From NCBI GenBank assembly GCA_041600695.1, contig JBFIJP010000001.1, positions 1 to 55,374 of the forward strand: a stretch of 55,374 bases of DNA, given 5' to 3'. This document shows, one piece after another, positions 3,818 through 50,104 of the stretch; positions within the stretch are counted from its first letter, which is position 1, and every line of letters starts with the position of its first letter. The notes below the pieces were generated by a model that had not been told where the DNA came from, did no database searches, and saw nothing but the letters and a program-made list of their open reading frames with translations. The stretch is from Thermoplasmatota archaeon. Its GTDB lineage: Archaea; Thermoplasmatota; E2; JACPAO01; JAHFTW01. Position numbers and translations under genes: made by a program.

Positions 3818-4093
3818 CTACCCGCCAGCAATGGCGGGAATGATCCGGACCACGGCCCCGTCGTCCACTGGCGAGTCGATACCACCCCGCTCGTCGACAT
3901 CCACCTGGTCAACAAACACGCGGACAAACGACCGCAGGCGGCCCTCGGCGTCCAGCAGTTGCTGTCCCAGGTCAGGGTACTTGTCGGCCAGACTCTTGAT
4001 GGCGGCGCCCACGGTTGCAGCGTCCACGGGCACTTCGGCCTGGTCGCTGGCGAGTTTTCTCAGGACTGTCGGCAATCGGATGGTTACGCTCAT
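3818..4093 (-). CDS. cysO: ThiS/MoaD-family ubiquitin-like sulfur-carrier protein (CysO/SAMP-like), ending in Gly-Gly
   Basis: 91 aa starting at MSVTIRLPTVLR and ending ...VRIIPAIAGG* (diglycine C-terminus). The ATG at 4093 overlaps the TGA of the upstream JAMM gene (ATGA). The longer track ORF (to 4252) is an Arg/Pro-rich extension. Confidence 0.85.
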   Translation of the reverse strand: MSVTIRLPTVLRKLASDQAEVPVDAATVGAAIKSLADKYPDLGQQLLDAEGRLRSFVRVFVDQVDVDERGGIDSPVDDGAVVRIIPAIAGG

Positions 4094-10190: not shown

Positions 10191-12608
10191 CTACGTGTGC
10201 GTCCGGCGCGAGGCTGGCTGAGCTGGCACGGGATGGAGTTCGCCCCCGCGCGCGGTCCGGGTCGAGAAGCCCTCGACGACATCCGGCTGTCCAGGTCCGG
10301 AACCGGTATGCGTGGCGTCATTGGCAACGATGCGGACCAACGCGTTGGCTAGACTGTTGTGTTCCCGTACAAAAGCACGAAGGGCATCGATGTCGGCCAG
10401 GGACGGGAACCGCCGGCCGGCCTCGGCCCGGAAGGCATCTTCCGACGGCGCCAGGCGGACCAACCGTGGCCAGAGCCGGGAATCCTGGGCTGCTGCCTGG
10501 GACACCTCCGGCCAGCGTTCCTGAACGGCCGTCCAGAGTGCCAGGTCGCTGGGCGCAACGCCAGAACCCTCCTCCAGCAGCCCCGCCGATTCGGCAACGT
10601 ACGTCTGGACCCTGAGACGGTTGATGAACCGCTTCGCGTGGCGTGGGGTGCCGGGAAGAAGCGGCCAAGCAGCCTCAAGGGCCCTGCGGAAGGCCGGCGA
10701 CGCGGTTTCCAGTTGATCGATGTGGCGTCGCTCCGGCTCGTACGAGGCGCCCACCCTGGAGAGTCGCTCGACTTCGGCCTCGCGCTGGTCGCCCACGCCC
10801 GCCCGCCGGGACGCGCGCGGGGACCCACGGGGCGACGCGGACGCCGGGGGCGACGCGGGTGCCGGCGGGGGCGTTGGTGCGCTGCCGGGCGCTCTTCGGC
10901 CAGCCGCCGGACGAGGTGTCACGACCGCACGCTGCGCAGGCGGTTGCGGGGTTTCCTTCAGAAGTTCCGCCAGTAAGGTACGCAGCCGTTCGGCCGATGG
11001 ATGGGGCAGTGACAACTGGAGTTGGATGATTTTTTGCAGGTACCGCCGCCCGAAGACGAGACTGCCTGCTGGCCCGTCATCCGGGCCCAGGTCGCCGCCC
11101 GGTCGGTACGTGCGCGCCAGTTTCTCGTACTTGACGGCCACCTGAGCCGCAACGCCCGACATCTCCGCCATCACCACCACGATGACATCGGGGCCGGTCA
11201 GAACCTGGTTGACGAACTCGAGGGCATCGCAAGCTCCCGGTGGCCGGCAGCGCTCCAGGTCATCGATGAAGACCACGAGTCGCCCGCCTTCGGGCAGGGC
11301 TGCCGCCAGGTGTTCGCGAAGCTCTTTGCGCATCGCTTCCAGATCGCCAGCCGAAGCTTCCAGTTCCGGGTCGTGGGCAAAGGCGGCCAGGGCGCTCTGG
11401 AGGCGTTGGAGGCGGGGAAACTGACTCCCGCCGCCGGCTGCCGCCGCATTGAGGATCCACGCCGAGAGCGAGGGAGCTCCGTCGGCAAACAAGCTCACGA
11501 AGTTGGCTCCCGCTGGCGTCCCCAGCCATTCGAGCACCTGACCCACGCCCGCCAATCCGCCCACAGCGACCAGCGTGGCGACTGCTGCCGCCTCTGCATA
11601 ACTGCGCCCACGTTCGGGGCCGGCCTGCAAGTCGAGAGGCAGGCGGTGCCAGAACCGGCGCCAACGCTTGGCACGGGCCCGGGCCGCCCGCAGCACCGCC
11701 GCCAGGAGCGCCTGGCCCAGGTCGCCGGAGTCGTCGTGCTGCCAGGCGTTGAAATCGACGATCAGGTAGGGCTGCGCTTCGCCCTTGTCCCGGGCGAGCA
11801 TGTTGCGGTACGCCAGGCGGTCCCGAACCAGGTTGGCCAGGCTGGTCTTGCCGACACCCCAGGGCGCGTCAACCGCGATGGTCAGCGGCGTGTCGGTGGC
11901 GGGGTTCTCGATGAGGGCCGCCAGGGCGTTGGCGTACCAGCCGTAGCCAAGCATGTCCTGGGCCGGATCCTCGACGGCACGGTCTGAGAGTTGGTGGAGG
12001 GCGGCCAGAATCGATCCAGGCTCCGGCGGCTCGGGCCGGGCGACGCGGTCCAGGTGGTCGTCGACCCAGCGCGCGAGTCGATCCACATCAGGCTCTGCGG
12101 GTAGCTCGAAGAAGTCCCGTGCAGGAGCCCTTTCGAGCCGGACCATCGCAGCCTCGAAGATGCGACCCATCTCGTCTTGGCTGACGCGCTCAAATGGGCC
12201 CGCCATGGCCTCCTTGCCAGGCAAGGCTGCCAGGCGCTCGGAGCCCACATGCTCGCCGAGCCACTCCAGCCAGCCGGGATCGGGAACCCCCCGGTCCGGC
12301 CACCACATTTCGAGCACGATCTTTGCGGCTCCGATCTGCGCGGACGCGGACTGGCGGGCAGTATCATCGAACGGGGCACCGGTGTAGATCTGGACGAACG
12401 ACGCCTTCAGACCCACGGCCGCCAGGGCCCCACGCAAGTCAGCGGCTCGCCCACCCGCCCAGTCGGTGTTGTGGGCAACGAGAACCACGGGAGCATCGCC
12501 TGGCAGGCGGCCGGCCTCCTCGTCGATGCGCCGAATGTACGCCTCCCGGGTCTCGTCCCAACCGTCCGCAGGGGGATGCCGCTCGGGATCAGTCCTCGCC
12601 GCGAGCAC
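10191..12608 (-). CDS. KAP-family P-loop NTPase with an unassigned ~230-aa N-terminal region
   Basis: Walker A DAPWGVGKTS, FNAWQHDD, hydrophobic helices inserted within the NTPase domain (AAAVATLVAVGGLAGVG; SLSAWILNAAAAGG), Walker B VVFIDDLERC, and C-terminal TPRHAKRFINRL. All are KAP hallmarks. GTG start; the exact start is uncertain. Confidence 0.85.
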   Translation of the reverse strand: MLAARTDPERHPPADGWDETREAYIRRIDEEAGRLPGDAPVVLVAHNTDWAGGRAADLRGALAAVGLKASFVQIYTGAPFDDTARQSASAQIGAAKIVLEMWWPDRGVPDPGWLEWLGEHVGSERLAALPGKEAMAGPFERVSQDEMGRIFEAAMVRLERAPARDFFELPAEPDVDRLARWVDDHLDRVARPEPPEPGSILAALHQLSDRAVEDPAQDMLGYGWYANALAALIENPATDTPLTIAVDAPWGVGKTSLANLVRDRLAYRNMLARDKGEAQPYLIVDFNAWQHDDSGDLGQALLAAVLRAARARAKRWRRFWHRLPLDLQAGPERGRSYAEAAAVATLVAVGGLAGVGQVLEWLGTPAGANFVSLFADGAPSLSAWILNAAAAGGGSQFPRLQRLQSALAAFAHDPELEASAGDLEAMRKELREHLAAALPEGGRLVVFIDDLERCRPPGACDALEFVNQVLTGPDVIVVVMAEMSGVAAQVAVKYEKLARTYRPGGDLGPDDGPAGSLVFGRRYLQKIIQLQLSLPHPSAERLRTLLAELLKETPQPPAQRAVVTPRPAAGRRAPGSAPTPPPAPASPPASASPRGSPRASRRAGVGDQREAEVERLSRVGASYEPERRHIDQLETASPAFRRALEAAWPLLPGTPRHAKRFINRLRVQTYVAESAGLLEEGSGVAPSDLALWTAVQERWPEVSQAAAQDSRLWPRLVRLAPSEDAFRAEAGRRFPSLADIDALRAFVREHNSLANALVRIVANDATHTGSGPGQPDVVEGFSTRTARGGELHPVPAQPASRRTHT

Positions 12609-23828: not shown

Positions 23829-23911
23829 GGTTCGCCGCGAGTCCGGGCCTCCTGAAAAAGGGGATCGGCGCACGTGGCAAGGCTCAAGCCCCGTGCGCCC
23901 GCTGCCCCACC

Positions 23912-24733
23912 ATGGAGCCCGTCGCGGTCCTTGAGGCCGCCAAGCGGCACGCCAGCGCCATCGCGTTCAGTCCCGATGGCAAGTCGCTCGTCACCGGCGG
24001 CATGGAAGGAACGCTGCGCGCCTGGAACGTGGGCGACTGGAGCCTTGAGCACGATCTGAAAGGGCACACGGGTTCGGTCAATGGCATCCAGTGGCAGGGC
24101 GACTGGATGGCGACCGCCGGGTCGGACAAGACCGTGCGATGGTGGCATGATTGGCAGGCCGATGACGCGTGGCAGGGCTTCGTGGGCATCGCCTGCCACG
24201 ATGGCGCCATCGCCCTTCGCAAAGAGCGCAGTGCACAAATTGAGATTCACCTGGGCCACAAGGCCAACAAGATCAAGACCGGCCATGCCCGCGTGATGGG
24301 CCTCACCGCGGTGCCCGGCGGGTGGGCAGTCTCCGGCCTTGGCCCCGACGTTGAGATTCGCGACATTGACGGGGAATTCATGCACACGCTGCCTGGCCAC
24401 CAGCCCTGCCCAGCGTCCATAGCCGGATCGGACCCAATCGTGACGACGGATGGAAAAGGACGCGTGCGATTGTGGAGTCGGGGAAAAGAAAAGGCCGGAT
24501 TTTCCGTTCACCCCGGGTATTGCTGGGCGGCGCCCAGCCCGAATGGGAATGCGATCGCCACAGGGAGTGAGAATCAGATTGGAATTTGGACGCCTGAGGG
24601 CGAATTGATGGATTCCTTCGAGCCCGGGCTGAAGGGCGTGTACGGAGTTTGCTTTTCGCCCGACGGGCAGTGGCTCGTCAACGCTGCCGCCGACGGGGAA
24701 GTTCGCGTCTTTGACGTAAGCCGGACAGGTTGA
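23912..24733 (+). CDS. WD40 repeat protein (273 aa)
   Basis: Repeated SPDG..LVTGG.EGTLRAWN, GSDKTVRWW and AAADGEVRVFD type blades. Confidence 0.8.
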   Translation: MEPVAVLEAAKRHASAIAFSPDGKSLVTGGMEGTLRAWNVGDWSLEHDLKGHTGSVNGIQWQGDWMATAGSDKTVRWWHDWQADDAWQGFVGIACHDGAIALRKERSAQIEIHLGHKANKIKTGHARVMGLTAVPGGWAVSGLGPDVEIRDIDGEFMHTLPGHQPCPASIAGSDPIVTTDGKGRVRLWSRGKEKAGFSVHPGYCWAAPSPNGNAIATGSENQIGIWTPEGELMDSFEPGLKGVYGVCFSPDGQWLVNAAADGEVRVFDVSRTG

Positions 24734-24823
24734 GACACGACATCTTGTCGACCCCACGGGCCGCCCGCCAGACGCTCCGCCATGAGCGCATGGGCTTCGG
24801 CCTTCTAGCGGCCCCCTGGTGCC

Positions 24824-25639
24824 TCAGAGTAGGGATACAACGGGCATCGGAATCCATGCCCGGTTGTTGCCGTAGTCCGTCTCGATGATGAACTGGTTGG
24901 AGTTCATTTCGCCCTCAAGGATGTAGAGGCCCGTCGGCAGATCCGTTACGTCGATCCACATGCCGTCCTGGAAGAAGGCATACGTGTCCGCCCACCCCGG
25001 GTCCTGGCCCTGGCTGCTGTTGCAGATCTGGAACAGCACATCACTGTGGTTGGGCACAGGATCAAACGTCGTCGCCGCGCCATTGGGCCCAGGCACGAAC
25101 GGCTCCTGGGAGACAACACAGAAGCCCTGTTTCTTGCCCGCAACAAAGGCAGACTGCAGTTCCGGGTGGGCGGCCAAAACCTCCTCGGCCGGCCGGGCCG
25201 GGTCGGCGGTGCGAAGCGCATCCCAGGCAAGGAAACCCTCCGGCGTCCAGACCCGGAACGTTGCATGTTCCTTGACATGGTAATGCCGGTGGCAACTGGA
25301 CCACTCGAACCAGTCCGGATGGTCGGCGGGGGCGCCGAGATTCAAATCTCCATCGCCAATGTTGCCAAACGTGAAGCTGACCCTAATCAATTGCCGGTGG
25401 CCGGCCTCGACGGCCCCCTCGCGCACGGCGCAATGGTTCGGCCCGAAAAACTCCGTCTCCTGTTTTCCGATGGCCAGCGACTGGAACGATGTGGCGAGGT
25501 CCGGGCATCCGCGCGGATCCGAACAGGGGACCTGGAGCGGGTCGTTGCCGGACGCGCCGCCGGTCGGGTGAAGGGCGACGGTCGTTGCGGCGATGACGAT
25601 GAAGAGAGCAAGCCTGCGCATTACGGGAGAAAGGCGCAT
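24824..25639 (-). CDS. Lysyl oxidase (LOX) family copper amine oxidase homologue, secreted
   Basis: FEWSSCHRHYHVKEH matches the LOX copper site WEWHSCHQHYHS. GKKQGFCV aligns to GHKASFCL (LTQ Lys). GWADTYAFFQDGMWIDVTDLPTGLYIL aligns to [27 protein letters not shown] (LTQ Tyr). ETDYGNN aligns to ESDYTNN. N-terminal signal/anchor; start at 25639 or 25621. Confidence 0.85.
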   Translation of the reverse strand: MRLSPVMRRLALFIVIAATTVALHPTGGASGNDPLQVPCSDPRGCPDLATSFQSLAIGKQETEFFGPNHCAVREGAVEAGHRQLIRVSFTFGNIGDGDLNLGAPADHPDWFEWSSCHRHYHVKEHATFRVWTPEGFLAWDALRTADPARPAEEVLAAHPELQSAFVAGKKQGFCVVSQEPFVPGPNGAATTFDPVPNHSDVLFQICNSSQGQDPGWADTYAFFQDGMWIDVTDLPTGLYILEGEMNSNQFIIETDYGNNRAWIPMPVVSLL

Positions 25640-25739
25640 GGCCTTCTTCGCGCTTTGGGTCCGCCCCGGTGGGGGCGCCCCACCCATGATGCCGCCCGTC
25701 ACAGTACCAACGCAGCCACCGTAGGCGGTGATCCATTCC

Positions 25740-26108
25740 TCAGGCAAGCAATTCGAAGAGCAACGCGCCAATCGCCGCCAGTTCCACCACCCATGACAGG
25801 TGTCGCCCCCGCGAAACGATGATGGTCATCACCGACGTGGCGCCGAGTCCACAGACCACGGTCCAGCCGATCACCTGCTCGGCGCTCGCCGGCGCCAACA
25901 GCAACAGGGCGGCGATGGCCCACCAAGCGACCGTGAGGGCGTGCCAAGCGAACCTGAGCGTCTGCTTGGTGAACGAGTCGTCGCCGAACAGCTTCGGTAA
26001 GTCCCGCCTGAACAGACGGATCAGGATGAACTTCTCGCCGAGAATCGAGTGGGCCAGGGCGAGCGCGATCATCATGACGGCGGCGGCAACGAAGCCGGGA
26101 GGGCTCAC
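25740..26108 (-). CDS. Small 3-4 TM membrane protein of unknown family (local paralogue A)
   Basis: 122 aa containing ALALAHSILGEKFILIRLF..DLPKLF.DDSFTKQTLRFAWHALT. It looks roughly 80% similar, by eye, to the copies at 32678-33007 and 28317-28634. Confidence 0.65.
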   Translation of the reverse strand: MSPPGFVAAAVMMIALALAHSILGEKFILIRLFRRDLPKLFGDDSFTKQTLRFAWHALTVAWWAIAALLLLAPASAEQVIGWTVVCGLGATSVMTIIVSRGRHLSWVVELAAIGALLFELLA

Positions 26109-26299
26109 GCTGGCTGATGGCTGGGGCGCGCTAAGGGGCTACCGGGCCAACAGGAGGAGCGCCGCGGCCGCCTGCATCCGGACGCGTGGGAAAAAACCAG
26201 ACCTCCGATGTGGGCGCCTGCCGTGCGGGCCAGGACTCACGCCGCCGCGCGCTGCGTTCGAAGCGCCCCGGCCCTGTTGGGCGTCGCAGCGCGCCGCCG

Positions 26300-27454
26300 C
26301 TAGGCTGTGTTCGCCTTGAGGAACGCAAGCGTTCTGACCCACGCGTCGGCGGTTTGGTCGGGGGCCCAGGCGTCGCCGGAGGGGTTGGCGAAGGCATGGC
26401 CGACATCCGGGTAGATGTACATCGCGTTCTCGACGCTGGCGTTGCCGAGGGCGGCCTCAAACTGCCTCACCGCTGCGGGCGGGATCAAGGCGTCGTCCTC
26501 GCCAAAAATGCCCAGGATGGGCCATTCGATGGCTGCCAGACGCGCCTCGTCGGTCACCAGGGAGCCGTAGTAGATGACGGTGGCCGCAAGCGTCTCGCCG
26601 CTGAGCGCCAGTTGCAGGGATTGCCCGCCGCCGAAGCACCAGCCCAGGGAGATGATGCGGTCGGCCCCCGCTGAGCGAAGGTAGGTCGCGGCGGCTTGCA
26701 TGTTGGCATTCGCCTCGTCTTGGTCGAGCGCCTGGACCTGTGCCAGCGCCTCGGCGGGAGTCGCCGCAACGCTTCCATCAAACAGATCGACCGCGACGAC
26801 GGCGTATCCGTGCGTGGCCAGCAGGTGCGCCATGTCGCGGATGTTGTCGGTGAGGCCCCACCACTCGTGGATCATGACCACACCAGCCATCGCGGTCCCC
26901 TCGGCCGGACGGGCGTAGTTCCCAACGATGTCGCCGTGGTAGGCGACGTTCTCCTGGACGACGGCGAACGGTCCCGCGTCGTTGAGCATCTCGGAGTTGC
27001 TGGGCGGATGGCGCACCACGAACCAGACGCCCCCTCGCCCGTCGCCCTTGGCGTCGCCGGGGCTTGTGTCTCCAACGTAATAGTACAGGGGGAGCCCCTT
27101 GTAGGCCAACTGCATCGTCCCGTCGGCGCGCTGGATGACCTCAAGGTCACCAGCCACGACGGGCGGCGCAGGTGGCGCCTCGCTGGCCAAAACAGGAGGC
27201 CAGTTCACGAGGCAAGTGCCCAAACACCTGCTGGTGCCGGCTTCGTCGTCGGTGAACACGTACAACGTCCTGCCTGCGCTGTCGACCAGCACGGTGCCGA
27301 CGCCAGCGATGGATTGGAACTCAAGGGATCGCGCGCCCGTGCCCGCGTCAGCCCCCTCTCCGGGCCCGGGGCCGGGGTCGGCGGGCTCGGTGCAGCCTGC
27401 GAGCGATGCCAGGGCAATGACGAGCAGAGCCAAACGTGCGCCGTGGTTAACCAT
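26300..27454 (-). CDS. Lipoprotein: PF03640-like secreted repeats fused to a dienelactone hydrolase domain
   Basis: Lipobox LASLAGC. GRTLYVFTDD...CLGTCLVNWPP and GLPLYYYVGD...GVWFVV match the 'secreted repeat of unknown function' pattern. The C-terminal DLH has IHEWWGL, GWCFGG (nucleophile elbow) and YPDVGHAF. ATG at 27454; the upstream part of the track ORF is an artefact. Confidence 0.8.
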   Translation of the reverse strand: MVNHGARLALLVIALASLAGCTEPADPGPGPGEGADAGTGARSLEFQSIAGVGTVLVDSAGRTLYVFTDDEAGTSRCLGTCLVNWPPVLASEAPPAPPVVAGDLEVIQRADGTMQLAYKGLPLYYYVGDTSPGDAKGDGRGGVWFVVRHPPSNSEMLNDAGPFAVVQENVAYHGDIVGNYARPAEGTAMAGVVMIHEWWGLTDNIRDMAHLLATHGYAVVAVDLFDGSVAATPAEALAQVQALDQDEANANMQAAATYLRSAGADRIISLGWCFGGGQSLQLALSGETLAATVIYYGSLVTDEARLAAIEWPILGIFGEDDALIPPAAVRQFEAALGNASVENAMYIYPDVGHAFANPSGDAWAPDQTADAWVRTLAFLKANTA

Positions 27455-27962
27455 GACATCGAACACGGAAGGAGCCAGAAAAGACCTCGCCAGCAGGCCG
27501 TGATTTTGGCACGCCGACGGGCATCTCGGCAGGGATGCCCGTTGCATTATCGTCGGTCGCGGATGGGACGGGGCGAGCCCCACAGGCTGCTTCGCATGGA
27601 CATCCAGTGGGCTTTCGACGAGGCGGGCGGTGGTACGCGAAAAGTCCAGATCGCGGCCATCCTGGCCGCCCGGCCGCAGGCGCGGCGGCCCATGAGGGGC
27701 TGACCTTGGACGGCTACGCCGGGTCCGGACGAGATTAGCGGCATTGGCCCGAGTGGCGTCGAGCCACCCCGCGCACGGGGGCGCGGCGAAAAACACGGGC
27801 TCAGGTCCCATGGCTTGACAAGAGCTGGCCCGAGCACGCGGCGACGGCTGGCCCGTCGTGTGCTGCGCGCGGCCGGCCCCCTCAACAATCAATCAAAGTT
27901 CCTGATCAACCCGCTAACGTTATAGATTGGATGATTTTTCAGCCATACAGCCCAGAGGTGCT

Positions 27963-28193
27963 ATGATGTATCGTAAACTTGCAACCGCAACGCTGTGCGC
28001 TTTGGCCCTGGCCATGACACTGACTCCCACGGTCACGGCAGACTACATGGACGGGCAGGGCTGGATCGAGGCCTGCGCCGGCGAAACGAATGTCGTCGAT
28101 CGGGGCTTGTGCGCCGGGAGCGGCAAGCCGCATGAACACTGCGACCATGGCAGCAACGGATTGTACTACTGCGTTCACGTGAACGACGTTTAG
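27963..28193 (+). CDS. Small secreted Cys-rich protein (76 aa)
   Basis: GAGGTG lies 5 nt before the ATG at 27963. Signal peptide MMYRKLATATLCALALAMTLTPTVTA. The mature part has 5 Cys and 4 His. The gene sits in a locally AT-richer patch. Confidence 0.5.
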   Translation: MMYRKLATATLCALALAMTLTPTVTADYMDGQGWIEACAGETNVVDRGLCAGSGKPHEHCDHGSNGLYYCVHVNDV

Positions 28194-28203
28194 CTCGCCC
28201 GAC

Positions 28204-28227
28204 GTGGCGCGGCTACGGCCGCGCCAC
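28204..28227 (+). terminator. Hairpin downstream of the small secreted-protein gene
   Basis: gtggcgcggc (28204-28213) pairs with gccgcgccac (28218-28227) around a 4-nt loop, 11 nt after the stop. A T5 run follows at ~28252. Termination function is not established. Confidence 0.3.
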
Positions 28228-28316
28228 CCCTCTTTCACCCCTTCCACCAACCCATTTTTGCGGCACCGGGCCCGCCATCATCGCTTGACGTTCCCGGCGC
28301 CGGTGCCAGCAGATCC

Positions 28317-28634
28317 TCAACTCACGAGTTCAACGAGAAGGGCTCCGATGGCCGCCAACTCAACGACCCACGGCACGTGCCGTCCTCGGGAGATCACGAT
28401 CGTCATCAGGGCCGTGGCTCCCAGGGCGGCCACCACGGTCGAGCCGATCACTTGCTCGGCGGGGGCGAGGAGCAGCAGGGCGGCGATGGCCCACCAAACG
28501 ATGGTCAGCGCGTGCCAGGCGAACCTGAGCGTCTGCTTGGTGAAGGAATCGTCACTGAACTATTTCGGCAGATCCTGTTTGAACGGCCGGATCAGCACGC
28601 CGAGGTGCACGTCACCGTCACGTGCGTCGTCCAT
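28317..28634 (-). pseudogene. Truncated, stop-containing duplicate of the small membrane-protein gene (paralogue B)
   Basis: The minus-strand frame gives MDDARDGDVHLGVLIRPFKQDLPK*FSDDSFTKQTLRFAWHALTIVWW...ELVS*. There is an in-frame TAG (plus-strand cta at 28560-28562) where copy C has TTG. The N-terminal TM helix is replaced by unrelated sequence. Confidence 0.75.
28326..28595. repeat. Left copy of a ~270-bp direct repeat (partner at 32684-32959)
   Basis: In my manual alignment the two copies differ by about 6 substitutions and one 6-nt indel (gctggc, present only in the right copy). Confidence 0.85.
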
Positions 28635-28744
28635 GAGCCCGTGAACCTTGACTTAAAGGTGCGTCGGTGGACCCCGGTTGGGCGCGAGCCTGTTGCCTGT
28701 TCGCCATCCAAAGGACTTTCATCCTGAATACTTCATCGAAGACC

Positions 28745-31700
28745 ATGTCCCACCAACGGTGCGCGACCAGCAAAGATGTCGGCTCGGTCGTTGTCCGAGT
28801 CCTCGGTGGGCATGACGCGCCGGTCGCCCGGGCGACGTGGCGCCCCGACGGTGCCCGTCTTGCAACCGGCAGCCGGGATGGAACCGCACGCATCTGGGAC
28901 GCGGCGTCCGGGAAGACCCTGCGGGTCCTACTTCGGCACCGAGGATCTGTGAGCACCCCAGCTTGGAGCCCAGATGGTGCCTACCTAGCCACGGGGAGCG
29001 CTGATGGCACCGCGCGCATCTGGCACGCCGGTTCGGGTCGATCCATCCACGTCTTGAGTGGTCACAAGGGCTCGGTAGGCTGGCCGGCTTGGAGCCCGGA
29101 CGGGACACGGCTAGCGACCGGTAGCGATGATGGAACAGCCCGCATTTGGGAAACAGCTTCGGGCAAGGCAATGCATGTCCTAGCCGATCACAAGGGGTGG
29201 GTAGGCTCGCCAACTTGGAGCTCCGACGGCACTCGTGTCGCGACGGGCAGCCGCGATGGTAAGGCACGCATCTGGGACGCATCCTCTGGCAAAGCCATCC
29301 ACCAGCTGTTGGGTCACAGTGGTTGGGCCTACGCACCCACATGGAGTCAGAAACGCAACTATGTCGCCACGGGCAGCCATGACGGCACAGCTCGCGTTTG
29401 GGATGCGGGGTCGGGAAACGTCGTCACGGTCCTTAGCGGCCACAAGGGCTGGGTGGGCTCGCCCAGTTGGAGCCCGGACGGTACGAGGGTGGCCACCGGG
29501 AGCCGCGATGGCACGGCGCGCATATGGGATGCCGCCTCAGGCCAAGCGATGCATGTGCTGACTGGCCACAAGGGATGGGTCGGGTCTCCATCATGGAGTC
29601 CAGATGGCACGTGCGTCGCAACCGGCAGCCGGGATGGTACGGCGCGGATTTGGGACACGGCGTCGGGCAAAGCAATTCACGTGTTGACGGGCCACACGGA
29701 TTGGGTGTATGCACCCACCTGGCACCCCGAGGGCGGTCAGGTCGCAACCGCTAGTCATGACGGAACGGCACGGATCTGGGATCTTGGGCTCGGACGGGAA
29801 CACGTTGATCCGAATAGAATCACGTGCCGCGTAGCCAAGATAGTATTAGTGGGGCACGAACGGGTAGGGAAGACGGGTTTGACGCGGGCCCTGGCGGGCA
29901 TGCCTTTCCAGGAAACCGGCCCGACGCACGGTCGGGACGTCCGCCTTTTTGATGATCGGATTTGCGAGCAATTGGCTACGCTTGCTCCGAACGACGAGCA
30001 GCGGGAAGCGTGGGTCTGGGATCTAGCAGGCCAAGCGGGCTACCGTATCTTTCATCAACAGCACCTTGACGATGCGGCCCTTGGAATCGTTGTTTTCAAC
30101 AACCAAGCAGGGGAGGATCCGTTTCCAGAAGTAGCATACTGGGCACGCGCCCTTGACGCTGCCAACCCAGGACCGCATTTCCGCAAGCTGTTAGTTTCTT
30201 CGCTTGCCGACATCAATGCCCCTCCCATAAACAAGGCGGACCTAGACAGGGCTCTCGATGAATTCGGATTCCAGGAGTTCCTGTCCGTGAGTGCCAAGGA
30301 ACCCTATCGAGCGGATACGCTGCCCGCCTTGGCGCGACGGGTCCGCGACGCAATCGCATGGCACGAACTGCCGAATTGGATACGAGATGGAGTTCTTCTC
30401 CAAGCTGAGGAGTTCCTCGCGTCCAAGCGAGATGGTGGATTAATTCTTGTAAAGGAAGCCACCCTGAGAGATGAGTTCGCCTCTAAGCACGGCGCGCCAA
30501 GTGAAGGTGCGGTTAGGCAGGCCCTGAGCGTTTTGGAACATTCGGGATTGGCCCGGCGACTCAGATTCCGGGATTGGGTGCTATTGCGCGCAGAGGTCCT
30601 CGACGCATACGGCGCTTGGATCGCAAGCGCCGCCCAAGACACGTCGCGTGATGGAGCAGGAACCATTCTCGAGCGCTCGGTGAATGACGCGAAGATACCG
30701 ATGGCCGCCGACCGACCACTGAAGGGTACAGACGCAGAAGATGTCCTGCTGCGGGCGACGGTAAACGATTTGCTAGACCGAGGCGTTGCTCTTCGGCAGG
30801 AGACCGAGGGCGGCGATATGCTCGTCTTCCCGGCCGAATTCAGTCGGCACCTGCCGGCCGAGGCCCCCGCGCTCGAACCCGCGGTTGCTTTCACATTCCA
30901 GGGGGACAAGGCTTCGATACATGCAACCCTAGCAGTGCGGTTGGCCAACGTCCCAATCTACCGAACCCCTTCGCCTCGCTTCTACCACAGCGCAGCGCTG
31001 TTCCAAGCTCCGGATGGGGCCACTTGCGGATTCCGTGTCGGGGAGGCAGACCCGCGTGATCAATCGAGCTGCCGGCTAACTGTAATGTTCAGCAAGGCGG
31101 TAAGATCCCAAACGAAGGCGGCGTTTCTGCGCTACGTGCGCCATCACCTAGACTCGCGAACGGGCCAAGAGCCCGCGGCAGCCGAAAGAATCTACGAGCA
31201 CTGCGACGAGAGGATATCGCCTCGCGTTGTGGCGAAGATCAGACGTCGGGGTCGCAATACCGTTCGCTGCCAGATTTGCGAGGCGACCTTATGCCTCGAT
31301 GATCTTGCTGGTGATATCGGACCGCTGGATACGAAAGGCGCGGCGCAATGGCGCGCTTCTGGAGAGGAGCAGGCTCGTCAAGCCCGGAAGACACTCGCCC
31401 CGGAGCGGATGGCTGCAGAGGAATTCGACTTGTTCCTCTGTCATAATAGCGCAGACAAATCTCAAGTCCAAGACATACAACGCCGACTTTTCGATCACGG
31501 TATTGTGTCATGGCTCGACAAGGAGCAGATCCTGAAAGGACGGCAATTTATTCCCATACTAGAACAAGCAATAGATCGCACCCCGAACGTCGCTGTGGTC
31601 GTCGGACCAGAGGGGCTGGGGCGTTGGCAGGAACAGGAATACTACGCATTCTTGCAGTTGTATGTCGAAGGACGTGATGACACGGATAAGAAACGGGTAC

Positions 31701-31876
31701 GAATATTCCCGATCCTGCTTCCGGGCGTTGAACGGAAACCGCATCTCCCAACCTTTCTCAAGGCATTCCATTGGGTTGATTTGCGCCGGAAGGGTGTTGA
31801 TGGTGACGCCGAAATCGGCGAATTCGCGCGTGCCATATTGCAGACCAATTCCCCGGACGACCCAGACCGGTTGTGA
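28745..31876 (+). CDS. Multidomain WD40 (x8) / Roc-type small GTPase / COR-like / TIR protein (1043 aa)
   Basis: aa 17-346: eight ~42-aa WD repeats (GH.G.V....WSPDGT..ATGS.DGTARIWD). aa ~364-525: P-loop KIVLVGHERVGKTGL, WDLAGQ (DxxGQ), LLVSSLAD (degenerate NKxD) and SVSAK. aa ~540-800: COR-like region. aa ~893-1030: TIR-like FDLFLCHNSADK...IVSWLD...VVVVGPEGLGRWQEQEY...RIFPILL. ATG at 28745. Confidence 0.85.
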   Translation: MSHQRCATSKDVGSVVVRVLGGHDAPVARATWRPDGARLATGSRDGTARIWDAASGKTLRVLLRHRGSVSTPAWSPDGAYLATGSADGTARIWHAGSGRSIHVLSGHKGSVGWPAWSPDGTRLATGSDDGTARIWETASGKAMHVLADHKGWVGSPTWSSDGTRVATGSRDGKARIWDASSGKAIHQLLGHSGWAYAPTWSQKRNYVATGSHDGTARVWDAGSGNVVTVLSGHKGWVGSPSWSPDGTRVATGSRDGTARIWDAASGQAMHVLTGHKGWVGSPSWSPDGTCVATGSRDGTARIWDTASGKAIHVLTGHTDWVYAPTWHPEGGQVATASHDGTARIWDLGLGREHVDPNRITCRVAKIVLVGHERVGKTGLTRALAGMPFQETGPTHGRDVRLFDDRICEQLATLAPNDEQREAWVWDLAGQAGYRIFHQQHLDDAALGIVVFNNQAGEDPFPEVAYWARALDAANPGPHFRKLLVSSLADINAPPINKADLDRALDEFGFQEFLSVSAKEPYRADTLPALARRVRDAIAWHELPNWIRDGVLLQAEEFLASKRDGGLILVKEATLRDEFASKHGAPSEGAVRQALSVLEHSGLARRLRFRDWVLLRAEVLDAYGAWIASAAQDTSRDGAGTILERSVNDAKIPMAADRPLKGTDAEDVLLRATVNDLLDRGVALRQETEGGDMLVFPAEFSRHLPAEAPALEPAVAFTFQGDKASIHATLAVRLANVPIYRTPSPRFYHSAALFQAPDGATCGFRVGEADPRDQSSCRLTVMFSKAVRSQTKAAFLRYVRHHLDSRTGQEPAAAERIYEHCDERISPRVVAKIRRRGRNTVRCQICEATLCLDDLAGDIGPLDTKGAAQWRASGEEQARQARKTLAPERMAAEEFDLFLCHNSADKSQVQDIQRRLFDHGIVSWLDKEQILKGRQFIPILEQAIDRTPNVAVVVGPEGLGRWQEQEYYAFLQLYVEGRDDTDKKRVRIFPILLPGVERKPHLPTFLKAFHWVDLRRKGVDGDAEIGEFARAILQTNSPDDPDRL

Positions 31877-32656
31877 GGCCCTCTGTGCCGGAGCAACAAC
31901 CAAGCGAGACAGCACTTGGAGTCCGCAATCTGATCGATTCTAACAATATGAATTCAGGAATGATGCCACCAAGGCAATATAAAAACTAACTTGGTGTAAC
32001 CCTGGCCACGGATTCAGCCATGCCGGCGGCCGATTGCAGGCGATGCCGTAAAGCCACCGGCGCTTTGCCGTGAACCCGAGGATCTGATCTGGAACGCCGT
32101 TACGCAAGCCCATCAACTTTAGTCAAGAAGCTATGAGAAAAACATCTGGCATTGGTGCCTTTACGGCGCTAAAAGCAAGGCAACTTTTGCATCCACCTGA
32201 TGAGCATATAGGCTCGGACTCACATTCGACTTTCATCCGAGCCACCCCATCAGCTACTCCGACGACACGAAATGCCCGACGCCATGGTGGCCGTGACGAA
32301 TGCGGAAGTCACGGATAGCTGGGGCCACGCCATTCTCCGGGGAGGGGTACCATCAGGCGGCGTCCATGTCGTCGTAGAGGAGGTCACAGAGCGCAAGCCA
32401 TCTCCCATGGAGGGTGCGTGATGACCGATCATTCGCAGCTTGAGACGACAAGGACAAGGTGACTTTGATGCTCATGAAGGGCGTTTCGGCCGGCGTGTTC
32501 AACGGCACGTTGGAAGGCAATGCCAGGCGGGCGATCGATGTGTCCAGCGGGCCAAGATTGATGCTCCTCCAGTAAGCGCCCTCGTGTGGGCGGCGGCAGT
32601 CCAAGTTTCAATCCGCTTATCGCGCGGCTTGGCCTCGGCTTCGAGTTGAGCACGAG

Positions 32657-32678
32657 GCCGGGCCGGGCCCGGCCCGGC
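32657..32678. repeat. 22-nt perfect GC palindrome at the right edge of the insert
   Basis: gccgggccgggcccggcccggc is its own reverse complement. It abuts (1-nt overlap) the stop codon of the intact membrane-protein gene. Confidence 0.8.
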
Positions 32679-33007
32679 TAAATGAGTTCAACGAGAAGGG
32701 CTCCGATGGCCGCCAACTCAACGACCCACGACACGTGCCGTCCTCGGGAGATCACGATCGTCACCAGCGCCGTGGCTCCCAGGGCCGCCACCACGGTCGA
32801 GCCGATCACTTGCTCGGCGCTGGCGGGGGCGAGGAGCAGCAGGGCGGCGATGGCCCACCAAACGATGGTCAGCGCGTGCCGGGCGAACCTGAGCGTCTGC
32901 TTGGTGAAGGAATCGTCACTGAACAATTTCGGCAGATCCTGTTTGAACGGCCGGATCAGGATGTACTTCTCGCCGAGGACAGAGTGGGCAAGCGCGAGGG
33001 CGATCAT
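32678..33007 (-). CDS. Small membrane protein (local paralogue C, intact)
   Basis: 109 aa from the ATG at 33007 (MIALALAHSVLGEKYILIRPFKQDLPKLFSDDSFTKQTLRF...). The longer track ORF (to 33205) would overlap the aldolase 3' end and is Arg-rich. Confidence 0.65.
   Translation of the reverse strand: MIALALAHSVLGEKYILIRPFKQDLPKLFSDDSFTKQTLRFARHALTIVWWAIAALLLLAPASAEQVIGSTVVAALGATALVTIVISRGRHVSWVVELAAIGALLVELI
32684..32959. repeat. Right copy of the ~270-bp direct repeat (partner at 28326-28595)
   Basis: See the left copy. This copy lies inside the intact gene 32678-33007. Confidence 0.85.
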
Positions 33008-33045
33008 CAGGACCGCTGCCGCGACGCCAAACCCTACTGTGAGGC

Positions 33046-34080
33046 CTACGCCGCGACGAACTTCTTGCCGAGCGCGGCGGCGCGGTTGGCGTCGCAGCGC
33101 TCCCGGAGGGCCGCCTGCGCGGCCGGGTTGTTGGCGTTGTTGCCGGCCCACGCCGTGAGGGCGGGTTGCTGTAGGGCTCGGCCGTAGCTGAAGCTGAGCT
33201 TCCACGGGAACGTGTAGTGCTCGTTCATGAGGCGCAGGTGCTCCGTGGCCTCCTCGGGGCTCTGGCCGCCGGACAGGAAGACGACGCCGGGGACACTCGC
33301 GGGCACGCAGTCAAGCAGAGCGAGCGCGGTGCGCTCGGCGACCTCCTCGGGGCCGGCGCGGTCGGGGGCGTCCTTGCCGCTGATGATCATGCTGGGCTTG
33401 AGCAGGATGCCCGGCAGGTGCACGCCGGCGTCCTTGAGGGCCCCGAAGAGCATGTCCCACGCGGCGCGGGTGATCTCCTCGCAGACATCGATGTCGTGGT
33501 CGCCGTCCATGAGGACCTCGGGCTCCACGATGGGGACGATGCCGGCCTCCTGGCACAACGCGGCGTAGCGGGCCAGGCCGTGGCTGTTGCCCACCAGGCA
33601 TGCGTTGCTGGGCATGCCCTCGCCGATGGTGATGACGGCGCGCCACTTGGCGAACTTGGCACCCATTTCGGCGTACTCAGCTAGGCGCTCGCGCAGGCCG
33701 TCGAGTCCTTCGGTGATCTTCTCGCCGGGGTGGTTGGCCAGCGGGTGAGCCCCGGTGTCAACCTTGATGCCGGGGAAGACGCCCTTGCCAGCCAGCAGTT
33801 CGCGCAGCGGCTGGCCGCTGGCGCTGTCCTGGCGCAGAGTTTCATCGAACAGGATGACGCCGCCGATGGAGTCCTCGATGCCCGGCGTGTCGAACAGCAT
33901 CTGGCGGTAGTCGCGGCGGGTGGTTTCGGTTGACTCCACGCCGATGCTGTTGAAGCGCTTGGTGCAGGTGGGGGTCGATTCGTCAGCGGCGAGGATTCCC
34001 TTGCCGTCGGCCACGATCGTCTGGGCGATCTCCTCCAGGAGCTGCCGGTCCATGGCGCCGGCCACACAGGTTTTGGGCAT
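33046..34080 (-). CDS. Class I fructose-1,6-bisphosphate aldolase (PF00274 'glycolytic' type)
   Basis: GKGILAADES, GVILFDETL, PGIKVD, KWRAV, VEPEVL, LLKPSM (Schiff-base Lys region), VVFLSGGQS and SFSYGRALQ. Start at 34080 (MPKTCVAG...) or 34053 (MDRQ...). Confidence 0.85.
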   Translation of the reverse strand: MPKTCVAGAMDRQLLEEIAQTIVADGKGILAADESTPTCTKRFNSIGVESTETTRRDYRQMLFDTPGIEDSIGGVILFDETLRQDSASGQPLRELLAGKGVFPGIKVDTGAHPLANHPGEKITEGLDGLRERLAEYAEMGAKFAKWRAVITIGEGMPSNACLVGNSHGLARYAALCQEAGIVPIVEPEVLMDGDHDIDVCEEITRAAWDMLFGALKDAGVHLPGILLKPSMIISGKDAPDRAGPEEVAERTALALLDCVPASVPGVVFLSGGQSPEEATEHLRLMNEHYTFPWKLSFSYGRALQQPALTAWAGNNANNPAAQAALRERCDANRAAALGKKFVAA

Positions 34081-47436: not shown

Positions 47437-48510
47437 TCAATTTGGGGTCCACCATGGCAGCGTGCAGTTCCCGGACTTGTCGGTTATTATCGCAACACTT
47501 TGAGCGGCGCGGGTTACGGCGACGTAGAAACATGCGGCCGGTATGGCATCGAGCCCCTTGTTATGTTGTAAGAATTGCCGGATGCCCGCGGTGGGGACAA
47601 TCAGAATTCGCTCGTGTTCGGTCCCCTTCGATATTTTGAAGTTCGTGAACCGCAGATTGTATTCTTTTCCCGAGGCAACGCTATGTCTTAGACAATGCGG
47701 GCCGAACGTGTCCACGTATTCGTAAATATGGTCTGGGTGAACTAAGAATAGCCCATCGTGGCCCGTTTCTTTCACGTTGTGGGTTTCGGTTGCTGGAAAA
47801 TCCCAGAGATGGGCGAAAATCGTGTCCGCGAATTTCGCTATTTCGCCGTGGCATCGCCAAGTGGTTGATTGGAACTCGATTTCCAGTGTGCCTGCATCGA
47901 CCCGCTCCTGGAACCAATCCATTGCCCCTGCGTAGGCATAGGCGCTGTTCTTTTTGCTTCGTGGATTAGTTGCCAATACCGCTTGGCGAACGTCGCCCAC
48001 CATTCGGATATGAATGGCTGATTTGAACAAATGGTCAAGAATGTCCCAGTCGTGCGCACTAAGGTCCTGAACTTCATCAATCAGGATTTCATCATATAGT
48101 GCCTCGAGCCGGTTCATCAGAGCCCCGCCCGCCAATCCAACCAATTCGCTAGAAAGGCGCCCAAGTTCGCAAGCGTAAACAGCGCCACTGGCGTCAAGGA
48201 ATCGCGCTGCCCCTGATGCCTTGAAATGTGGTCGACCTTCGAAATTGAATCCCCTGACTCGCAGGCCAGGAAATTTGAATGGGATAAACGGCCGGGCAAA
48301 GTGGCGCAGCAGGAATGTAAACCAGCCCATTACCTCCAGATGGGAGTGGTCGCCTGCAACCCCTCGCAAGCGTTCCTTCAAAACGCTTTGATTAGCGGTC
48401 GTGAAGGTCAAGACAAGGATTTTTCTGTCTCGCGGCGCATCGGCACAATGTTGGACCAGGCTCGTGGTTTTTCCTGACCCGGCGACGGCCAATTCAAGAC
48501 TATTGGGCAT
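47437..48510 (-). CDS. gajB: Compact UvrD-like SF1 helicase, GajB-like
   Basis: AVAGSGKTT (motif I), ILIDEVQDLS (II), MVGDVRQAV (III), SKGTEHERILIV (V) and YVAVTRAAQSVAII (VI). Only 357 aa. Its start overlaps the stop of the upstream OLD-type gene by 11 nt. Confidence 0.8.
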   Translation of the reverse strand: MPNSLELAVAGSGKTTSLVQHCADAPRDRKILVLTFTTANQSVLKERLRGVAGDHSHLEVMGWFTFLLRHFARPFIPFKFPGLRVRGFNFEGRPHFKASGAARFLDASGAVYACELGRLSSELVGLAGGALMNRLEALYDEILIDEVQDLSAHDWDILDHLFKSAIHIRMVGDVRQAVLATNPRSKKNSAYAYAGAMDWFQERVDAGTLEIEFQSTTWRCHGEIAKFADTIFAHLWDFPATETHNVKETGHDGLFLVHPDHIYEYVDTFGPHCLRHSVASGKEYNLRFTNFKISKGTEHERILIVPTAGIRQFLQHNKGLDAIPAACFYVAVTRAAQSVAIITDKSGNCTLPWWTPN

Positions 48511-50104
48511 GGATGAACTCCGCCGCCGCGGAAAGGTATGCTGGTGGGTTGAGTGCTTCCGTCGACGTGGCTATCCTGAGTGCGCCTTCCGTTTTTTCAC
48601 GACCCATCCATGTAGTGAGGTTTGCGTGGTCCGTGATTCCGAGCAGGCTACGCATCGCGGGTTCTCCATTTGCATGGACGAGTTGGGGCTCTAGCGTCCG
48701 GCCGGATGCAACGTCTCCAATAAACACCTCTCGACGTCCACCCACCAGCCACTGGGCAAGGGAAGTTCTCAGCGTTTCTGGTTCAGCACCATCGTTGTCA
48801 AGCACTACGGCCACAACCTTGTCCAGGGCGGCGCACAGTTCCAAACACTTGGCGGCTGAAAGACTCTTCATGCTGAGGACGTCAGTGCCGTGATCCAGTG
48901 GGCTGGCGCCAAATTTGTCCCGATATATGCGTTCAAAGATTATTTCGTCCGATGGGCCCTCCACTAGAACCAATTTCTTGGAAAGTGCAATCCGCAAGGT
49001 GTCGTAGCCGGGGAGTTTTTGGAAGTAATTGGCCGTACTTGGGTCCATTTCCGGGATTCGTGGGGCGTTTCCAGGCCCCATTAGGAAAAGCCGATCAAGC
49101 CGCAAGCGATTCAGTAAAAACGAATTGTGCGTTGCTATGAACACCTGTTGCCCATCAGCCGCTAGGTGTTCTATCTTTGACACAAGCGACACGAGAGCAG
49201 GGTATGCCAAATGGTTCTCGGGTTCCTCTATCATGACTATGTTCGCTTTATCCTGTTGCTGATGCATCGCTAGGGATATTTTGATGGCCGCTTGCTGTCC
49301 TTGTCCGGACATTGCGAATGGCACGCCGTCGACGTGGGGTGCGATGGAATTTTGCCACGATGCCCGGGCGCTTTGGTCTACGGCAAGTGTGATTGGCTTG
49401 TCATGAAGGGCTGTTTGGGCGGCTGAAATGCGCGCGTTTACCTCGTCCAAGGGGGGTGACGCGACGTTTTCCCGGCTTTGACGGAACGCAAGCGAAATGG
49501 CCGCCCGCTCTGCCGGTTCGAGAAAATCATTGAGAATGTCCCTGAGATGGAAATCAATCCCCGCAGTTGAACGGACTGTTCGCGAGTCAATAATCGCGGT
49601 CGCAAGGGGTCGTGGGCGCCGTAGTAAAGGGTCGTCAGCGAAACTTCTCCAAACCACCGAGTAGTATTCGATGGGAAGAATTGGCGAGGGATTGTTGGCC
49701 CAGAGTTCAAAATCGTCGGCAAATTCCGGATTCAGTACGACACTAAGGGCGACACCCGGACATGCATTGGTTGGCACGTCGCTGTTTATTGCGCCAGTAA
49801 GTCGCTGCAAATCTCCCCTATCCTGGAGGAAAACCTCGATGTGTATCTCGGGCGGGGGTGCAGCAATTCCTGATTTTCGGGCCTCCAAAAAAGCCTGAAC
49901 ATGACTCTTGTTGAACCAAAATGGATTCAGGTCGTCCGCTGCTCTCCGTCCATTCAGTCGCCCTGTGAGGGCAAGAATCATCGACTCCATTAGGGTTGAT
50001 TTACCGCTTTCGTTGGCGCCAACGATAAGGTTGAACCCTTCATTAGGGTGAAACTCGAATGACTGGAAAATTCGGTAACCCGAAATCTTGACCTTGGAAA
50101 TCAT
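48500..50104 (-). CDS. gajA: OLD-family ATPase-TOPRIM nuclease, GajA-like
   Basis: N-terminal ABC-type ATPase with GANESGKST (Walker A), MSGQGQQAAIKISLA, VMIEEPENHL (Walker B) and FIATHNSFLL. C-terminal TOPRIM with LVLVEGPSDEIIFERIY and VAVVLDNDG. Confidence 0.85.
   Translation of the reverse strand: MISKVKISGYRIFQSFEFHPNEGFNLIVGANESGKSTLMESMILALTGRLNGRRAADDLNPFWFNKSHVQAFLEARKSGIAAPPPEIHIEVFLQDRGDLQRLTGAINSDVPTNACPGVALSVVLNPEFADDFELWANNPSPILPIEYYSVVWRSFADDPLLRRPRPLATAIIDSRTVRSTAGIDFHLRDILNDFLEPAERAAISLAFRQSRENVASPPLDEVNARISAAQTALHDKPITLAVDQSARASWQNSIAPHVDGVPFAMSGQGQQAAIKISLAMHQQQDKANIVMIEEPENHLAYPALVSLVSKIEHLAADGQQVFIATHNSFLLNRLRLDRLFLMGPGNAPRIPEMDPSTANYFQKLPGYDTLRIALSKKLVLVEGPSDEIIFERIYRDKFGASPLDHGTDVLSMKSLSAAKCLELCAALDKVVAVVLDNDGAEPETLRTSLAQWLVGGRREVFIGDVASGRTLEPQLVHANGEPAMRSLLGITDHANLTTWMGREKTEGALRIATSTEALNPPAYLSAAAEFIHAQ

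Follow-up and report, generated by a model that had tools for sequence, protein, structure and literature searches.

The window analysed here is a stretch of 55,374 nucleotides from a Thermoplasmatota archaeon (GenBank assembly GCA_041600695.1, contig JBFIJP010000001.1), and its subject is a single gene on the plus strand, at 28745-31876. This gene is a complete open reading frame (ORF) that encodes, counted from its ATG, a protein of 1043 amino acids (aa) in which a WD40 beta-propeller, a Roc GTPase domain, a COR domain, a Zn-ribbon, a long helix and a TIR domain follow one another, referred to below as the ROCO-TIR protein. Most likely, with a confidence slightly on the favourable side of even, it is a ligand-sensing, GTPase-switched, NAD-cleaving TIR enzyme (NADase) acting in abortive-infection-type immunity. 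This reading is preferred because the residues at the catalytic position are conserved, a constant core is combined with a variable effector, the gene is laterally mobile and an earlier independent prediction is available. Confidence in the identity of the domains is much higher than in the functional reading.

Domain anatomy of the ROCO-TIR protein

The predicted effector lies at the C-terminus, where aa 893-1035 (31421-31849, plus strand) are matched by the Pfam family TIR_2 (PF13676) with E = 1.3e-16 and 61.6 bits, against a cutoff of 28, and display a beta-alpha pattern in the full-length model. A profile of 11 TIR domains of the family, searched against solved structures, matched AbTIR (7uxr, 2.5e-11; 8g83, 1.2e-10). 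It also matched TIR-STING (6wt6), the CRISPR-associated Cat1, PdTIR (3h16), Roq1 (E = 2.5e-08), TcpB, RUN1 and L6, and, with weaker E-values, the scaffold TIR domains of MAL/TIRAP, MyD88 and TLR1/2/6. TAL-effector repeats found when the TIR region was searched as a single sequence against the Protein Data Bank (PDB) are chance matches, and the family profile was used instead. In the profile alignment, the family motif W-q-x-x-E overlies W-T-N-Y-E of AbTIR, the residues of which we take to be Trp204 and the catalytic Glu208. The corresponding W-x3-E residues of this copy are Trp961 and Glu965 (codon 31637-31639), so placing the candidate catalytic Glu that had been picked out, within WQEQE, by a first-pass annotation made from the sequence alone. 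Within the family, Trp961 is conserved in 115 of 136 sequences, Glu965 in 115 of 135 and an N-terminal Asp, Asp904, in 128 of 140; this copy retains all three. The Trp/Glu pair found at the catalytic position of NAD-cleaving TIR domains is kept in this protein, and NADase activity is predicted from the alignment.

The reading frame begins at 28667 (GTG, in frame; 1069 aa) or at 28745 (ATG; 1043 aa) and ends with the TGA at 31874-31876; residue numbers are counted from the ATG. The frame is unbroken over 1043 codons, with no frameshift and no stop, and the term "giant" formerly applied to it does not suit a protein of this length. All of the domains are present in the full-length AlphaFold2 model (predicted local distance difference test score, pLDDT, 83.6; predicted template modelling score, pTM, 0.62). 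The proposed ligand sensor is the propeller at aa 16-351 (28790-29797, plus strand), matched by Pfam WD40 (PF00400) in 8 stretches with E = 1.2e-75. It consists of eight repeats with a period of exactly 42 aa (126 nt), modelled as eight four-stranded blades at a pLDDT of about 85-95, a number within the seven to eight repeats of a closed propeller. Compared pairwise, the repeats share 45-83% of their residues (mean 61%) and 50-75% of their DNA, with the variation restricted to repeat positions 1-2, 6, 9, 13-16, 22-23 and 29. The eight repeats of about 42 aa reported previously are therefore present, and are unusually uniform for WD40, but a mean identity of 61% does not make them near-identical.

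The G domain of the Roc (Ras-of-complex) type follows at aa 362-540 (29828-30364, plus strand). Pfam Roc (PF08477) matches with E = 2e-12 and 47.9 bits against a cutoff of 27, which supplies the Roc domain of a ROCO protein; Ras (PF00071) also matches this region at E = 4e-11, and the Roc domain of LRRK1 is reached by sequence at E = 0.0013. The motifs quoted earlier are all in place, namely G1 GHERVGKT (aa 370-377), with the P-loop Lys376 at codon 29870-29872, G3 WDLAGQ (425-430), G4 SLAD (486-489) and G5 VSAK (515-518), to which switch I PTH is added. In the family alignment, the consensus is G-D-[ST]-G-V-G-K-[ST] for the P-loop, S-T-H for switch I, an invariant WDLAGQ for G3 and T-S-A-K for G5. 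The consensus for G4 is A-A-R-x-D-R, not NKxD. The G4 motif of this copy is indeed degenerate, as had been stated, but the standard against which it should be judged is that of the family rather than NKxD.

The segment of 340 aa between Roc and TIR gave no Pfam match. Pfam COR was silent in this protein and in the mid-regions of 17 family members at E<=1, and no Roco chain in the PDB was reached by a sequence profile of the COR region; the C2H2 and Zn-ribbon matches of this profile are chance, due to Cys spacing only. An AlphaFold2 model of aa 356-850 was therefore examined, built on a 17-sequence family alignment (pLDDT 84.8, pTM 0.80). Searched with Foldseek against the PDB, it matched LRRK1 (8e04, E = 6e-18), the RocCOR structure of Chlorobium tepidum (3dpu_A, E = 1.2e-17, 520 columns), many LRRK2 entries and 6hlu, in which leucine-rich repeats (LRR) precede Roc-COR. 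These Roc-COR tandems were matched over approximately 520-560 columns, with E from 6e-18 to 1e-16; the isolated COR domain 3dpt was matched at about 4e-10 over 314-326 columns, and plain small GTPases ranked lower than the tandems. In the predicted structure, aa ~541-812 (30365-31180, plus strand) adopt a COR fold directly C-terminal to Roc, in which COR-A is made of two winged-helix-like units and precedes an alpha/beta COR-B. Because a COR fold is recovered after Roc, the protein is regarded as a genuine ROCO protein, and the description of these roughly 270 aa as COR-like is right at the level of the fold, since both the tandems (E ~1e-17) and the COR-only entry are among the Foldseek matches. 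The COR domain of propeller-type members is missed by sequence models and found by structure prediction.

Between COR and TIR, family members carry a four-Cys Zn-ribbon, a feature on which the earlier annotation was silent. It is located here at aa ~813-850 (31181-31294, plus strand), with the pattern C-x(1-3)-C ... C-x2-C in the family alignment, and gives weak Zn-ribbon matches in Pfam when the region of the relatives is searched. As a conserved part of the family core, it is a useful result in its own right. A linker (31295-31420, plus strand) then leads to the TIR domain and contains a long helix, assigned to aa 863-890 by DSSP on the full-length model. Taken as a whole, this anatomy fits the proposal that sensor, switch and effector are joined in one polypeptide.

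A constant core with exchanged effectors

A word-indexed search returned 20 relatives at 24-38% identity, the closest at 36-38%. Nearly all of them are WD40-Roc-COR-TIR proteins. One lacks WD40 and is probably truncated, in one a cyclase replaces TIR, one has a further TIR at the N-terminus, and a TIR_2/SEFIR-like variant is carried by six. The view of a rare family that these 20 relatives suggested was overturned by an exhaustive search with a COR/Zn-ribbon profile, which yielded 2132 clusters (representatives at 50% identity) at E<=1e-3 and 1102 at E<=1e-30. Among species-representative genomes, an alignment search with Roc and COR located relatives at no fewer than 199 loci (at least that number). 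The carriers include cyanobacteria, actinomycetes, Chloroflexota, Planctomycetota, Acidobacteriota, Verrucomicrobiota and archaea of the Methanosaeta/Methanosarcinales.

The C-terminus was classified for 164 proteins, comprising the listed profile matches and the relatives of the first search. A C-terminal TIR domain is present in 137, and 22 of the other 27 possess Roc and COR with a non-TIR or truncated C-terminus. The alternative tails identified with Pfam are a class III nucleotide cyclase (Guanylate_cyc, in several proteins), an nSTAND2 ATPase and a PNP_UDP_1 phosphorylase, while two tails are unassigned. On Nostoc plasmids, the genes that come after the Roc-COR core are annotated as encoding a metallophosphoesterase or a NACHT protein, and plasmid4 of Calothrix NIES-4101 encodes a full-length relative. 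The core of Roc, COR and Zn-ribbon stays the same across the family and the C-terminal domain is swapped, with TIR in the majority. Conflict systems have been described as following this pattern, in which a variable effector is joined to a constant core (PMC7159879, PMC8195603).

The cyclase-tailed proteins form a subgroup on the same WD40-Roc-COR-Zn-ribbon core (P0014, P0022, P0029, P0070, P0072, P0091 and P0137). Guanylate_cyc was matched at about 1e-15 by the two tails that were tested, and the remaining tails are alike by eye.

Lateral mobility and functional reading

The ROCO-TIR gene lies in an inserted cassette with 4086 bp of unique sequence (28598-32683), made up of 147 bp upstream, the gene itself and about 800 bp without a recognisable gene. 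Direct repeats bound the cassette on the left (28326-28597) and on the right (32684-32961); they share 95-99% of their nucleotides and differ by one 6-nt indel. Both derive from a small membrane-protein gene on the minus strand: the right one forms the 3' part of its intact copy (ORF 32678-33205), and the left one is a 3' fragment of about 90 codons that has been displaced. Two relatives provide sites that lack the gene. In the first, GCA_041624075.1 (L089, about 85% nt identity to the window), positions 1201-2607 match 34098-32684 of the window and positions 2336-3831 match 28595-27077. Because these alignments overlap, one 272-bp segment of L089 answers to both repeats, and 28598-32683 is absent. 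In the second, GCA_041622435.1 (L086), the aldolase of which is 97% identical, the aldolase gene directly adjoins the dienelactone-hydrolase gene, and 27519-33015 is therefore lacking. Moreover, an independent Logan assembly contains a contig of 4148 bp that corresponds to 28566-32713, in which the unique sequence is bounded by the repeats. The GC content at third codon positions (GC3) is 0.63 in the ROCO-TIR ORF and 0.56 in its TIR part, compared with 0.80-0.91 in most of the surrounding genes that were checked; the adjacent small membrane-protein gene has a value of 0.74. The flanking repeats, the foreign codon usage and the gene-free sites of the two relatives show that the gene is accessory, as had been supposed from its location.

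A scan of the cassette for an integrase, transposase, recombinase, tRNA, Rfam element or inverted repeats returned none. The approximately 800 bp after the gene (31.9-32.7 kb) gave no Pfam match and no recognisable coding sequence, and scans for promoters and terminators, which are ill suited to archaea, gave no signal above shuffled expectation. An insert flanked by repeats is the product expected of a single crossover between circular DNA and a 272-bp homologous segment, and the cassette may have been inserted in this way. The small membrane-protein gene (about 120 aa, no Pfam family, minus strand) exists in three copies in the window, namely an intact paralogue at 25740-26108 (77-80% nt identity), the 3' fragment and the intact copy.

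In the proposed mechanism, the propeller would first bind a ligand, whether protein or not, that stems from an invader or a stressed cell. Binding would alter the nucleotide state of Roc-COR and the COR-mediated oligomeric state, and the altered Roc-COR would then gather TIR domains so that active sites form. The assembled TIR domains would cleave NAD+ or make an ADP-ribose-derived signal, and the infected cell would arrest its growth or die. An immune role is plausible in this sense. In a broader and more tentative form, to which we give rather less than even weight, proteins with the order beta-propeller, Roc, cryptic COR, Zn-ribbon and effector would be widespread single-polypeptide innate immune receptors, a "ROCO-type NLR analogue" with a Ras-like GTPase in place of the STAND ATPase. 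The window would then record one such receptor entering a Thermoplasmatota archaeon on a recombinase-free cassette of 4.4 kb, through the crossover described above.

Several observations weigh against the immune reading and have to be set beside it, some of which concern the state of this copy. Of 61 alignment columns conserved at >=93%, taken here as near-invariant, it violates 11, compared with a mean of 1.6 and a median of 1 in the 145 other members, and it ranks second-worst among the 146 sequences. Nine of the departures fall in Roc. In the P-loop, position 371 is H (D in 124 of 145 relatives), 372 is E (S/T in 137 of 145) and 373 is R, where 138 of 145 relatives have G and none has R. 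Elsewhere in Roc, position 393 is P (S in 142 of 145), 487 in G4 is L (R in 149 of 153), 490 is I (R in 136 of 153) and 515 is V (T in 151 of 157). Furthermore, a deletion has removed the first Cys of the Zn-ribbon, which 161 of 161 relatives possess. On the alignment, the P-loop changes D371H, S/T372E and G373R together with R487L form a bigger anomaly than the degeneracy of G4 alone, which was all that had been flagged before. The GTPase of this copy may work otherwise than in the rest of the family, and with GTP-binding residues and one Zn ligand lost, the switch may be locked, rewired or decaying.

These changes, to which the foreign codon usage and the merely 36-38% identity of the closest relative can be added, are what would be expected if the gene were a decaying or disabled passenger that had arrived laterally, with its GTPase eroding under relaxed selection and regulated sensing lost. 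Such an outcome is unlikely but has to be taken seriously. The frame is intact over its whole length, the eight WD repeats, WDLAGQ with its DxxGQ, Lys376, Thr377, Asp489, SAK and the Trp, Glu and Asp of the TIR domain are all kept, and AlphaFold models the entire chain confidently. The substitutions may instead reflect a changed nucleotide cycle; changes equivalent to G12 and G13 of Ras slow hydrolysis and do not abolish binding. The atypical GTP-binding motifs make this copy ill suited to tests, for which the canonical relatives of cultured Nostoc, Calothrix, Lentzea, Micromonospora or Actinoplanes would be preferable.

The contrary evidence also includes the genomic setting of the homologues, surveyed at 43 genome loci with two genes taken on each side (150 proteins). 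The neighbours are mostly metabolic or housekeeping genes, and three metagenomic relatives are likewise solitary among metabolic genes. Conflict-type genes amount to three NACHT, two TIR_2, two nSTAND3 and one Cas3, as raw counts without a background rate. No concentration in defence islands is visible among these loci and neighbours, without a background model, and no PADLOC family was matched by more than two of the neighbours. Defence-island enrichment was among the checks proposed in the earlier annotation, and these counts do not refute the immune reading. The other recurrent families are response regulators (four) and the Mur ligase and penicillin-binding protein (PBP) genes at three Lentzea loci. 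No relative was found in the phage genomes searched, PADLOC and NCBIfam returned no system-level match for the protein (models for ThsB, SAVED_TIR and RT-TIR matched weakly, E from 4.5e-06 to 0.03), and no experimental work on any ROCO-TIR protein was found in the literature searched. No conserved partner gene occurs across the 43 loci, and no neighbouring family is shared beyond closely related taxa, a result that fits a self-contained single-gene system.

Homologues that stand mostly alone among housekeeping genes could also belong to a cellular signalling module, or to one for regulated cell death or development in filamentous and multicellular prokaryotes, with the TIR or cyclase tail making an endogenous nucleotide signal. 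A filamentous habit or complex development is indeed found in many carriers (Nostoc, Calothrix, Lentzea, Micromonospora, Actinoplanes, Anaerolineae, Methanosaeta), the class III cyclase carried by a sizeable minority is a classical signalling output, and in the three Lentzea species the gene keeps the same chromosomal context beside the Mur ligase and PBP genes. This role is nevertheless improbable in view of the patchy spread across distant phyla and archaea, the plasmid copy, the strain-variable insertion seen here, the exchange of the effector among toxin-like or immune-type domains (TIR, nSTAND, NACHT, phosphorylase) and the internal conservation of the WD repeats, as in fast-evolving receptors. 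Some TIR domains, moreover, are scaffolds and not enzymes. If this were true here, the TIR domain would be a non-enzymatic adaptor, comparable with TLR/MyD88, recruiting a TIR protein encoded elsewhere, and the protein would be the sensor half of a two-part system. The matches of the TIR profile to scaffold TIR domains, the subgroup with the TIR_2/SEFIR-like variant and the occasional TIR_2 neighbours (2 of 150) are compatible with such a role. It is very improbable, as the best matches are enzymatic (AbTIR, TIR-STING, Cat1, Roq1), the Glu at the catalytic position and its upstream Trp are present in approximately 85% of members, and neither a conserved partner nor a second gene on the cassette accompanies the protein.

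ROCO proteins have been studied chiefly owing to LRRK2 and Parkinson's disease. If the immune reading is true, a Roc-COR GTPase can act as the switch through which an immune receptor sets off a TIR NADase, in parallel to the STAND-based NLRs, and a tractable system would be at hand for the coupling by Roc-COR of ligand sensing to an output domain. The value of the present analysis lies in a large family of candidate Roc-COR immune receptors and in a clean example of the insertion of one member into an archaeal genome.

Genomic surroundings and comparison with known systems

A complete Gabija system lies on the minus strand at 47437-50104, within a low-GC stretch at about 47-54 kb. GajA (OLD-type ATPase with TOPRIM, 48500-50104) and GajB (UvrD-like helicase, 47437-48510) were matched by PADLOC over the full model length, with E = 3.7e-194 and 2.2e-132, respectively. 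The GC content of this stretch is 0.53-0.57 compared with approximately 0.67 for the contig, so that it is considered a second foreign island, some 16 kb from the ROCO-TIR cassette. A small cassette flanked by repeats can carry a ROCO-TIR gene into an archaeal genome, here one in which Gabija is also present. At the other end of the window, the ORF at 10191-12608 (minus strand, 805 aa) gave a partial, sub-threshold match to QatA (E = 3.8e-22, 78.7 bits against a cutoff of 600), and its product may be just a related P-loop ATPase, not QatA.

The genes around the cassette point to a Thermoplasmatota archaeon as the probable host; the window contains no rRNA or tRNA. The best named relatives of the adjoining class I aldolase, at 77-79% identity, come from metagenome-assembled genomes (MAGs) labelled Thermoplasmatota archaeon; further Thermoplasmatota or Thermoplasmata labels appear at 64-68%, and bacterial labels only at <=65%. 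A Thermoplasmatota MAG contig (L087/L088) is collinear with the window at 63-77% nt identity through RNase R, AliA_AliB, EamA, PALP, aldolase and phosphofructokinase. At 11007-11008 of L087, the aldolase gene is directly followed by that of phosphofructokinase, whereas in the window the two are separated by about 9.2 kb (23832-33047) holding a lysyl-oxidase-like gene, the small membrane protein, the dienelactone hydrolase and the cassette. The interval looks like a hotspot for variable genes in this lineage. Within it, the dienelactone hydrolase/Lipoprotein_15 ORF at 26300-27892 (minus strand, 530 aa) is probably over-extended, the L086 orthologue having 385 aa and homology starting from 27518. 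A small ORF at 27927-28193 (plus strand, 88 aa) has a signal-peptide-like N-terminus, several Cys and no Pfam match; its region is present in L089, and is therefore native to the lineage and outside the cassette.

Two features were observed at the loci of homologues elsewhere. The commonest neighbour is a methyltransferase of the NNMT/PNMT/TEMT family (6 of 150), confined to four loci (L051, L058, L068 and L072) of Streptosporangiaceae and related actinomycetes, in all of which one or two such genes lie directly upstream of the ROCO homologue in divergent orientation. Nicotinamide N-methyltransferases belong to this family, and TIR NADases produce nicotinamide. The link may be functional, or may reflect inherited synteny and shared ancestry. 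At a further locus (L085), a thymidylate-synthase gene with a called length of only 61 aa (9218-9403) lies directly upstream of homologue P0002 (10001-13129), beside an intact DHFR gene, and may mark another insertion of a ROCO-TIR gene next to or into a host gene.

Among known immune proteins, the STAND or NLR-like TIR proteins (Avs, bNACHT and plant TNLs such as Roq1) follow the same logic, with a repeat sensor, a nucleoside-triphosphate switch and TIR in one polypeptide. The switch here, however, is a Ras-like GTPase with COR and not a STAND AAA+ ATPase, and TNL and Avs proteins have the reverse order, from an N-terminal effector to a C-terminal sensor. Membership of STAND/Avs was rejected, as Pfam gave no STAND domain in this protein and only Roc/Ras-type P-loop matches lie between the propeller and COR; the protein is analogous. 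AbTIR, Thoeris ThsB, TIR-STING, SPARTA TIR-APAZ and Cat1 have the TIR_2 fold in common with it, with the Trp/Glu pair aligned to W-x3-E of AbTIR, yet none of them is fused to Roc-COR or WD40. Thoeris was rejected, given that the ThsB models reached only E = 0.007-0.03 and the cassette holds no second gene. TIR-STING/SAVED and retron-TIR were rejected as well, the PADLOC matches being weak and at the level of TIR, with no STING, SAVED, ThsA or Argonaute partner on the cassette.

The core itself is that of ROCO proteins. Chlorobium tepidum Roco (3dpu, 3dpt, 6hlu) possesses a Roc-COR tandem of the same fold and order, at 11-13% sequence identity, but has LRR instead of WD40, and its deposited structures are without Zn-ribbon or TIR; the G4 motif [AS][AS]RxD of the present family (SLAD in this copy) is also unlike that of the Chlorobium protein. 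Human LRRK2 and LRRK1, which are the top structural matches (E from 6e-18 to 1e-14), place the Roc-COR core amid repeats with an enzymatic output C-terminal to COR. In LRRK2 this output is a kinase and WD40 is C-terminal, whereas in the present protein the output is TIR, WD40 is N-terminal, and kinase, ankyrin and LRR are absent. ROCO proteins normally run from repeats through Roc-COR to the output, as LRR-Roc-COR-kinase does, and this order is opposite only to that of STAND/TNL/Avs proteins, so that the sensor and effector are not inverted, contrary to the earlier view.

The closest precedent is the earlier prediction of Kaur, Iyer, Burroughs & Aravind 2021 (eLife 10:e70394, PMC8195603), in which prokaryotic proteins that join N-terminal LRRs to AP-GTPase (Roc)-COR are predicted counter-invader systems with at least 24 alternative C-terminal domains, including TIR, caspase, trypsin, DRHyd, FGS and EADs. 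Systems such as the LRR-AP-GTPase-COR-TIR protein Npun_F6039 (Fig. 6D) share with the present family a layout of repeats, Roc and variable effector, often TIR, and are likewise single-gene, patchy and biased to multicellular prokaryotes. N-terminal repeats, AP-GTPase(-COR) and a variable C-terminal effector are indeed found across the homologues described here. The source data of Figure 6 in the same paper list "BetaPropeller+AP-GTPase+TIR" (for example HFS11412.1 of Anabaena, 1179 aa) and "TIR+BetaPropeller+AP-GTPase", with no COR annotation, and these entries are absent from the discussion in the main text. A TPR-ROCO-TIR protein has also been described in the red alga Chondrus (PMC11378527). 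Consequently, the statement that the architecture is not a named defence system agrees with the PADLOC result, but the architecture is not novel; it is already known as a predicted kind, of which this protein is a further member. The published account deals mainly with LRR versions whose COR is recognisable, and the likeness to HFS11412.1 rests on the listed layout. Compared with that account, the COR fold recovered by structure prediction, the conserved Zn-ribbon, the extent of the family at 2132 clusters and the copy in a probable archaeon are new here.

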